A DNA stretch of 64,000 nt from Escherichia coli (GTDB lineage: Bacteria > Pseudomonadota > Gammaproteobacteria > Enterobacterales > Enterobacteriaceae), in the NCBI RefSeq assembly GCF_044324875.1, contig NZ_CP172185.1. The stretch is one strand, 5' to 3'. The notes below the pieces were generated by a model. The model was not told the origin of the DNA. It worked only from the letters and a program-made list of their open reading frames with translations, and ran no database searches. Position 1 is the stretch's first letter. Every line of letters begins with the position of its first letter. Made by a program: the position numbers and the translations under genes. Shown in pieces: positions 15,907 to 16,812 of this stretch.

Positions 15907-16019
15907 TCTATCCAGTTCTGGAATCGCGCTTCCATAAAACAAAAAATCCCTGTCACCATTCTCTACATTCTCTTGTTTAGCATTTTTCTACGTTTATTCT
16001 TCTGTCACACAGATAAATT

Positions 16020-16075
16020 CATTCGTTGCCAATCTGTCAACGAATGTTATCATATTGCCAATTTGTCAACGGACG
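16020..16075 (+). promoter_or_regulatory. higBA promoter/operator: two direct repeats of an imperfect palindrome
   Basis: CGTTGCCAATCTGTCAACG (16024-16042) and TTGCCAATTTGTCAACGG (16055-16072) flanking TGTTATCAT -10-like hexamer, 13 nt upstream of higB ATG. Confidence 0.5.
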
Positions 16076-16084
16076 TGATGAAGA

Positions 16085-16399
16085 ATGCACCTGATAACTC
16101 AAAAAGCATTGAAAGATGCTGCGGAAAAATACCCGCAACATAAAACGGAGTTGGTGGCTCTGGGGAACACGATTGCTAAGGGATATTTCAAAAAACCTGA
16201 ATCATTAAAAGCAGTATTCCCATCTCTGGATAACTTCAAATATCTGGATAAGCATTATGTTTTCAATGTTGGGGGCAATGAATTACGTGTTGTAGCAATG
16301 GTCTTTTTTGAATCGCAAAAGTGCTACATACGTGAAGTTATGACGCATAAAGAATACGATTTCTTTACCGCCGTTCATCGTACTAAGGGGAAAAAATGA
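16085..16399 (+). CDS. higB: HigB mRNA-interferase toxin (type II TA)
   Basis: Track ORF 104 aa MHLITQKALKDAAEKYPQHKTELVALGNTIAKG...; overlaps higA by 4 nt. Confidence 0.85.
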   Translation: MHLITQKALKDAAEKYPQHKTELVALGNTIAKGYFKKPESLKAVFPSLDNFKYLDKHYVFNVGGNELRVVAMVFFESQKCYIREVMTHKEYDFFTAVHRTKGKK

Positions 16400-16812
16400 T
16401 TGCGATTGCCGACATCTTGCAAGCAGGAGAAAAGCTAACTGCTGTGGCACCTTTTCTGGCGGGTATTCAGAACGAGGAACAATACACCCAGGCGCTGGAA
16501 CTGGTCGATCATCTGCTGCTCAACGATCCTGAAAACCCCTTACTGGATCTGGTGTGTGCCAAAATAACCGCGTGGGAAGAATCAGCGCCCGAATTTGCGG
16601 AATTTAATGCCATGGCTCAAGCCATGCCTGGCGGTATAGCCGTGATTCGTACCCTTATGGATCAATATGGTTTAACCCTTTCCGATCTGCCGGAAATTGG
16701 CAGTAAATCCATGGTGTCACGCGTTTTGAGCGGGAAGAGGAAATTAACGCTGGAACACGCTAAAAAACTGGCAACGCGATTCGGCATTTCTCCCGCCTTG
16801 TTTATTGATTAA
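16396..16812 (+). CDS. higA: HigA antitoxin, HTH (XRE-like) DNA-binding protein
   Basis: Track ORF 138 aa MIAIADILQAGEKLTAVAPFLAGIQNEEQYTQ...; C-terminal HTH. Confidence 0.85.
   Translation: MIAIADILQAGEKLTAVAPFLAGIQNEEQYTQALELVDHLLLNDPENPLLDLVCAKITAWEESAPEFAEFNAMAQAMPGGIAVIRTLMDQYGLTLSDLPEIGSKSMVSRVLSGKRKLTLEHAKKLATRFGISPALFID

Follow-up and report, generated by a model that had tools for sequence, protein, structure and literature searches.

The chromosomal higBA (ygjN-ygjM) toxin-antitoxin operon of Escherichia and the two operator copies in its promoter

The gene pair described here lies in a 64,000-nucleotide stretch of Escherichia coli DNA (hereafter the window) and can be identified with high confidence as higBA (ygjN-ygjM), the type II toxin-antitoxin operon on the Escherichia chromosome, of the K-12 class; the same confidence extends to autorepression of its promoter, which probably involves two sites. 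As a discovery this matters little, considering that higBA at this place is already known and is a well-studied textbook system of E. coli, whose structures are solved and whose autoregulated promoter has been mapped. The part examined further here is the promoter, which carries two copies of the operator sequence (O1 and O2, Table 1). The comparative motif and the two-site layout set out below could guide the dissection of the E. coli operator, with regard to O1 vs. O2, to cooperativity and to the natural alleles of O1.

Table 1. Coordinates of the higBA genes, promoter elements, operator copies and flanking features in the window.
Feature	Position	Strand	Description	Evidence
rlmG	14721-15857		Upstream neighbour of higB	
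REP hairpin	15872-15903		Between rlmG and the higBA promoter	Inverted repeat TGCCGGATGCGGCGT/ACGCCTTATCCGGCA
O1, extended palindrome	16020-16046		CATTCGTTGCCA-ATC-TGTCAACGAATG; overlaps the -35 and spacer	Inverted repeat
O1, core	16025-16041		GTTGCCA-ATC-TGTCAAC	7-3-7 palindrome
-35 hexamer	16026-16031	+	TTGCCA; inside the left arm of O1	Promoter scan
Extended -10	16045-16053	+	TGt + TATCAT (TATCAT at 16048-16053)	Promoter scan
O2	16054-16070		ATTGCCA-ATT-TGTCAAC; directly 3' of the -10, across the expected transcription start	Repeat of the O1 core
higB	16085-16399	+	104 aa; ribosome-dependent mRNA interferase toxin	PF09907, K-12 identity, RefSeq annotation
higA	16396-16812	+	138 aa; antitoxin and repressor	HTH_3, K-12 identity
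REP-like perfect hairpin	16816-16846		Between the convergent genes higA and fadH	Inverted repeat GACGTGCCGGATGCG/CGCATCCGGCGCTTC
fadH	16857-18875	opposite	Downstream neighbour, convergent with higA	

The gene pair and its class

The original prediction, made from the sequence of the window, was of a HigB-like toxin of 104 residues encoded first and followed, with a 4-nt overlap, by a helix-turn-helix (HTH) antitoxin of 138 residues. The open reading frames bear this out, with the stop codon of higB and the start codon of higA overlapping in the four bases ATGA. A Shine-Dalgarno sequence, AAGGGG (16385-16390), stands five bases ahead of the higA ATG, whereas that of higB is poor, and this difference may favour an excess of antitoxin despite the reverse gene order. 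A further open reading frame of 79 aa, which runs across the promoter in another frame (15904-16143), was treated as spurious. The order rlmG-higB-higA-fadH is that of K-12, and RefSeq annotates higB and higA at this position between rlmG and fadH in thousands of E. coli genomes.

The naming of the two proteins is supported by a domain search as well as by identity to characterized proteins. In Pfam, HigB matches HigB_toxin (PF09907) over residues 20-92 with 78.9 bits (cut-off 27), and HigA matches HTH_3 with 31.8 bits (cut-off 23) over residues 84-135 of 138, which places the HTH at the C-terminus. Direct comparison with b3083 and b3082 of K-12 MG1655 gave 100% protein identity for HigB and HigA, respectively, and the six DNA differences from K-12 in the coding sequence (two in higB and four in higA) are all synonymous. 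The PDB chains 5IFG_A and 5IFG_B are identical to HigB and HigA, respectively, and full-length matches were obtained to E. coli HigB/HigA chains of 5IFG, 6KML/6KMQ, 6IRP, and 6JQ4. The proteins of Shigella flexneri HigBA (PDB 5YCL) are near-identical (E 1.6e-64 and 7.3e-85), with scores slightly below those of the K-12 chains; this system is of the same class and architecture and its complex is reported to bind DNA (PMC7160566).

The label "hig" is appropriate if it is taken to mean the K-12 class, but not if it is taken to mean the original HigBA family of Rts1/Proteus. The module belongs to the K-12 class, which combines a PF09907 toxin with an antitoxin whose HTH is C-terminal, and every sequence criterion agrees with this. 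No match of the toxin to PF05015 (HigB-like/plasmid killer) was obtained, PF09907 being its sole Pfam family at E <= 0.01, and HigA scored 18.7 bits against the NCBIfam model TIGR02607 (antidote_HigA), below the cut-off of 47.7. In HigA of the K-12 class the N-terminal part serves for dimerisation and toxin binding, with the HTH at the C-terminus, whereas HigA of Proteus/Rts1 and of Pseudomonas has the reverse domain order with an N-terminal HTH (PMC6987408, PMC7160566). Membership in the Rts1/Proteus class is ruled out by the absence of PF05015, the sub-cut-off score for TIGR02607 and the C-terminal HTH. The founding hig system, HigBA of Rts1 and Proteus vulgaris, is likewise toxin-first and has a ribosome-dependent RelE-fold toxin and a self-repressing HTH antitoxin, but it belongs to another family on both sides. 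Gene order and mode of action, rather than membership in one family, account for the name common to both classes.

Promoter and duplicated operator

A promoter scan of the region returned only one strong promoter-like site on the plus strand, the pair TTGCCA/TATCAT, which is near-consensus for sigma-70 with 10 of 12 matches, a 16-nt spacer and the TG of an extended -10. The bracketing of a TATCAT -10-like element by the repeats had been part of the original prediction, and it is this hexamer that the scan assigns as the -10. In K-12, a single promoter upstream of higB has been mapped by primer extension (PMC2814082), and we infer that transcription of higBA here starts at about 16060. A divergent minus-strand promoter built on the TTGACA of the right arms was rejected, as it has no acceptable -10 and none was found by the promoter scan.

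Two direct-repeat copies of a palindrome had also been predicted, and both are present, as CGTTGCCAATCTGTCAACG at 16024-16042 and TTGCCAATTTGTCAACGG at 16055-16072. A repeat search returned a 25-nt direct repeat (16026-16050 and 16055-16079) with 84% identity and a spacing of 29 bp, as well as an inverted repeat with 12-nt arms that are 92% complementary (16020-16031 and 16035-16046). Self-complementarity extends over 22 of the 27 positions of O1, and the half-site centres lie 10 bp apart, as would suit an HTH dimer. A count of the degenerate motif TTGCCAATYTGKCAACG over the 64 kb gave exactly two occurrences, where 0.06 are expected, and two matches were seen in none of 100 shuffles; the combined score for palindrome plus repeat was above all 500 of 500 shuffles. 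The duplication thus beats chance, and it has comparative support as described below, but the description of both copies as imperfect palindromes suits O1 better than O2, which is much the weaker of the two: in the 7-3-7 core O2 pairs at five of seven positions vs. six of seven in O1, and it has no outward extension while O1 extends to 12-nt arms.

This weakness of O2 speaks for a reading in which O1 alone is a HigA site and O2 is either a decayed duplicate or a sequence conserved solely as the transcription start and 5' leader. A review that describes one operator, called single, for E. coli higBA (PMC10135005) points the same way. We consider this reading unlikely, though the most serious of the alternatives; O2, 29 bp downstream, agrees with the O1 core in 15 of its 17 positions, and the variation found in related promoters also bears on it. 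Binding of HigA to the operator, which the original prediction called for, is in print, in that the part of PMC8138530 that summarises Jadhav 2020 gives nanomolar affinity of HigA and of HigBA for the palindromic operator; a passage of PMC11869752 offers a further summary of that work on the HigBA operator. For the O2 copy the case is made by sequence, from which we infer a second HigA site in E. coli, and the literature consulted gave no direct demonstration that HigA of E. coli binds O2.

Among the aligned Escherichia sequences, O2 and the -10 are invariant and O1 has three variable positions. K-12 shares its promoter hexamers and O2 with the window, and the O1 of K-12 is a perfect 11-3-11 palindrome, ATCCGTTGCCA-ATC-TGGCAACGGAT, from which the O1 of the window differs at all three positions. 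O157 has TGTCAAC as the right arm; EcPF7 has an outer C to T change besides this O157-type arm; and the window and strain A25 have the matching outer G to A as well (C..G to T..A relative to K-12), by which symmetry is restored. This symmetric change of the outer pair is a single event and only anecdotal.

A scan of species-representative genomes with HigB gave four loci, in Escherichia sp. E1V33, E. whittamii, Kluyvera georgiana, and one contig of 474 bp. In Kluyvera georgiana the order rlmG-higB-higA-fadH is syntenic and HigB is 81% identical; GTTGCCA-AAA-TGGCAAC, TGcTATGAT, and the entire O2 are retained at equal distances, the pattern TGnTAT(C/G)AT being common to Kluyvera and the window, and the intergenic sequence upstream of O1 is unalignable between the two. 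The stretch conserved in Kluyvera is the whole of the -10 to the ATG, which is wider than O2 and would also suit conservation of O2 as a leader. The short contig, NZ_SBHZ01000041.1, is filed as Pseudomonas khazarica and has low coverage; it encodes residues 1-101 of HigB at 100% identity, and the 166 bp of its promoter that could be aligned are identical to K-12. The contig most likely stems from E. coli DNA contaminating the Pseudomonas khazarica assembly.

More distant homologues were sought by tblastn of HigB on plasmids, which matched 1,008 records, mostly at 33-40% identity and annotated as a HigB-family toxin followed by an HTH protein. Eight were inspected, from Salmonella, Shewanella, Serratia, Klebsiella (two), Acinetobacter, Providencia, and Pantoea. 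Seven of these carry 7-3-7 palindromes in pairs, at a spacing of 36-38 bp; the second member of the pair starts immediately 3' of a TAnAAT-like -10 and is often a perfect palindrome, and each of these pairs scored above 500 of 500 shuffles; the Acinetobacter homologue, one of the eight, showed no two-site pattern. Of the 14 arm positions, a mean of 12.75 agree when the two sites of one promoter are compared, and a mean of 10.5 when sites of different promoters are compared. The core GTTnnCA-N3-TGnnAAC is common to all sites, with T3, C6, G12, A15, and A16 invariant. Placement of the second site after the -10 in seven distant homologues argues against O1 being the only HigA site, as does the finding that their second sites carry the O1 sequence of their own promoter although the leaders are unrelated.

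The E. coli O2, directly after TATCAT, fits this plasmid layout exactly. The plasmid systems of Klebsiella, Serratia, Salmonella, Shewanella, Providencia, and Pantoea share with the window the same gene pair and an O2-type site that abuts the -10, and six of the eight pairs inspected also have the 4-nt gene overlap. They differ in the sequence of HigB, in positions 4-5 and 13-14 of the site, which vary between systems, and in the spacing, which is 29 bp in the chromosomal lineage of Escherichia/Kluyvera. Because of this difference in spacing, the -35 falls in a different arm of O1, namely the left arm in the window and the right arm in one inspected Klebsiella plasmid. On these comparisons we conclude that the duplicated operator appears to be real and a family trait. 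We also lean, with less assurance, toward a fuller statement, that O2 is a true HigA site and that the paired design is conserved family-wide: one 7-3-7 site would lie over the -35 region and one would abut the -10, with the core given above and specificity at positions 4-5 and 13-14, and the spacing would have contracted from 38 to 29 bp in Escherichia/Kluyvera. If this is true, the published biophysics covers half of the repression complex, for the work of Jadhav in 2020 reportedly used one DNA with a 33-bp palindrome.

Proposed mechanism and related systems

Toxicity of HigB and its neutralisation, which had been named as a check of the original prediction, are in print for the identical K-12 proteins, with a positive outcome: Christensen-Dalsgaard, Jørgensen and Gerdes found that growth was stopped by HigB and that this was counteracted by HigA (PMC2814082). 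In the same work HigA repressed the higBA promoter of K-12, as the predicted autoregulatory layout would have it, and induction of higBA by chloramphenicol or amino-acid starvation was Lon-dependent (PMC2814082).

The mechanism we propose joins these findings to the anatomy of the promoter. A single sigma-70 promoter (-35 TTGCCA, extended -10 TGtTATCAT) gives rise to a bicistronic higBA mRNA. HigB is a RelE-fold toxin that cuts mRNA solely during translation, and HigA a folded dimer whose N-terminal part holds HigB and whose C-terminal HTH holds DNA. Both HigA and the HigB2-HigA2 complex repress the promoter via the palindrome GTTGCCA-N3-TG(G/T)CAAC. To judge from the anatomy, occupation of O1 would block the -35 and the spacer and occupation of O2 would block the start point; since O1 covers the former and O2 the latter, RNA polymerase would be hindered in binding as well as at the start point. 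Degradation of HigA by Lon, when amino acids are short or translation is arrested, derepresses the promoter and frees HigB.

A homologous pair in Salmonella bears on the activity of the toxin. SehAB of Salmonella Typhimurium, at a chromosomal locus other than that of higBA, is toxin-first, and its antitoxin SehB, which dimerises through its N-terminal part and has the HTH at the C-terminus, shares 46% identity with HigA. The sehAB promoter has been described as repressed by SehB and as carrying two palindromes, which lie over the -35 and -10, although the printed source of this description has been retracted (PMC3868539). SehA is 40% identical to HigB and of the same class, and in a 2026 paper it is reported to bind and inhibit RNase III and to be without endoribonuclease activity (PMC12817084). 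A mainly non-nucleolytic HigB, acting for example by such inhibition of RNase III, is nonetheless very improbable, considering that the SehA paper itself sets SehA against E. coli HigB, which it treats as an mRNA endonuclease (PMC12817084), and that the protein of the window is identical to the K-12 HigB assayed in 2010, for which in vivo cleavage of mRNA, and of translated mRNA only, has been found (PMC2814082). In view of this report on SehA, toxin activity may not be uniform across the HigB/SehA family, and caution is called for in this respect.

The idea that the O1 palindrome acts as an RNA or DNA hairpin, and not as a protein-binding site, can be given almost no credence: a stem is possible and its outer pair, C-G in K-12, T-G in EcPF7, and T-A in the window and A25, resembles a compensatory series, but a dimeric HTH site predicts symmetric changes equally well, O1 lies upstream of the -10 and of the start site and hence outside the higBA transcript, the fold of 16015-16084 has a z of -1.15 with 30 of 200 shuffles as good, and binding of HigA to the palindrome is reported in PMC8138530.

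E. coli MqsRA resembles higBA in part. MqsRA shares the reverse gene order and a folded antitoxin with a C-terminal HTH, but the operator sequence is unrelated, and MqsR differs in that it cuts RNA whether or not this is being translated and drives MqsA off DNA. The N-terminal domain of MqsA is a zinc-binding domain. An mqsRA promoter with two palindromes was reportedly described by Brown et al. in 2011.

Lineage, decay of higB and flanking sequences

Judged by its sequence, the window DNA is from a divergent Escherichia lineage, because the identity of positions 12000-20000 to any of 5,426 complete E. coli genomes does not exceed 97.5%, the value for E. coli N3, and is in most cases no higher than 95.8%, and because the exact 100-bp promoter of the window is in no complete E. 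coli genome, the best match being 99% in 11 records. The flanking genes ygjR, ygjQ, ygjP, rlmG, and fadH are 94.5-96.9% identical to K-12 at the DNA level, whereas higB and higA reach 99.4 and 99.0%, respectively. This suggests that the higBA module is younger in common ancestry than its flanks, possibly through recombination or transfer.

The locus shows repeated natural decay of the toxin gene with the antitoxin retained. Among the complete E. coli genomes, 4,376 have higA, but only 2,847 retain the 5' portion of higB and only 2,841 the promoter; in about 28% of the genomes higA stands without this portion of higB, and both are absent from about 19%. In E2348/69, a deletion of roughly 325 bp (window 15998-16322) takes out most of higB together with the promoter and both operators and leaves higA intact, and strain A25 has a separate deletion internal to higB (window 16195-16385) with higA kept. 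An orphan higA at the rlmG-fadH locus has been described in CFT073 and NRG857c (PMC7232551). Strain AST85 has an exact deletion of 29 bp (aligned to window 16026-16054), which is one O1/O2 period, so that the operators are fused and the -10 is lost. This is the product expected of slippage or recombination between O1 and O2, and the higBA allele of AST85 is probably promoter-dead.

The module had further been predicted to be flanked by REP palindromes on both sides, and this is what is found, the upstream one (15872-15903) being canonical and the downstream one (16816-16846) REP-like. The former folds with -23.4 kcal/mol and the latter with -22.6 kcal/mol, each with a z of -3.9; the downstream hairpin is shorter than the upstream REP type, has perfect arms and matches the REP motif on both strands. 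The GCCGGATGCGNCG REP motif occurs 16 times in the 64-kb window vs. 0.73 expected, and the elements are, as is characteristic of REPs, intergenic palindromes of about 30-40 nt with the GCCGGATG motif and many dispersed copies. In Rfam, the REP-derived family naRNA4 gave a sub-threshold match at the upstream REP; at permissive thresholds nothing relevant was returned beyond such sub-threshold REP-like matches, together with one chance match to a CRISPR repeat. The downstream hairpin was rejected as an intrinsic terminator, since no T-run follows it, and a terminator scan returned sites at chance level alone, with none at this hairpin 3' of higA.

Further differences from K-12 were seen in the surrounding sequence. 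Between fadH and ygjK, the minus strand carries an open reading frame of 513 aa (window 19180-20721) that is not at that place in K-12; it appears in the annotation of E. coli N3 as a frameshifted hypothetical protein and matches no Pfam family. In the rlmG-higB gap (window 15864-15907), a single hybrid REP takes the place of the pair of inverted REPs seen in K-12 and in most E. coli; the difference from K-12 amounts to 56 bp, and its junction lies inside the REP.
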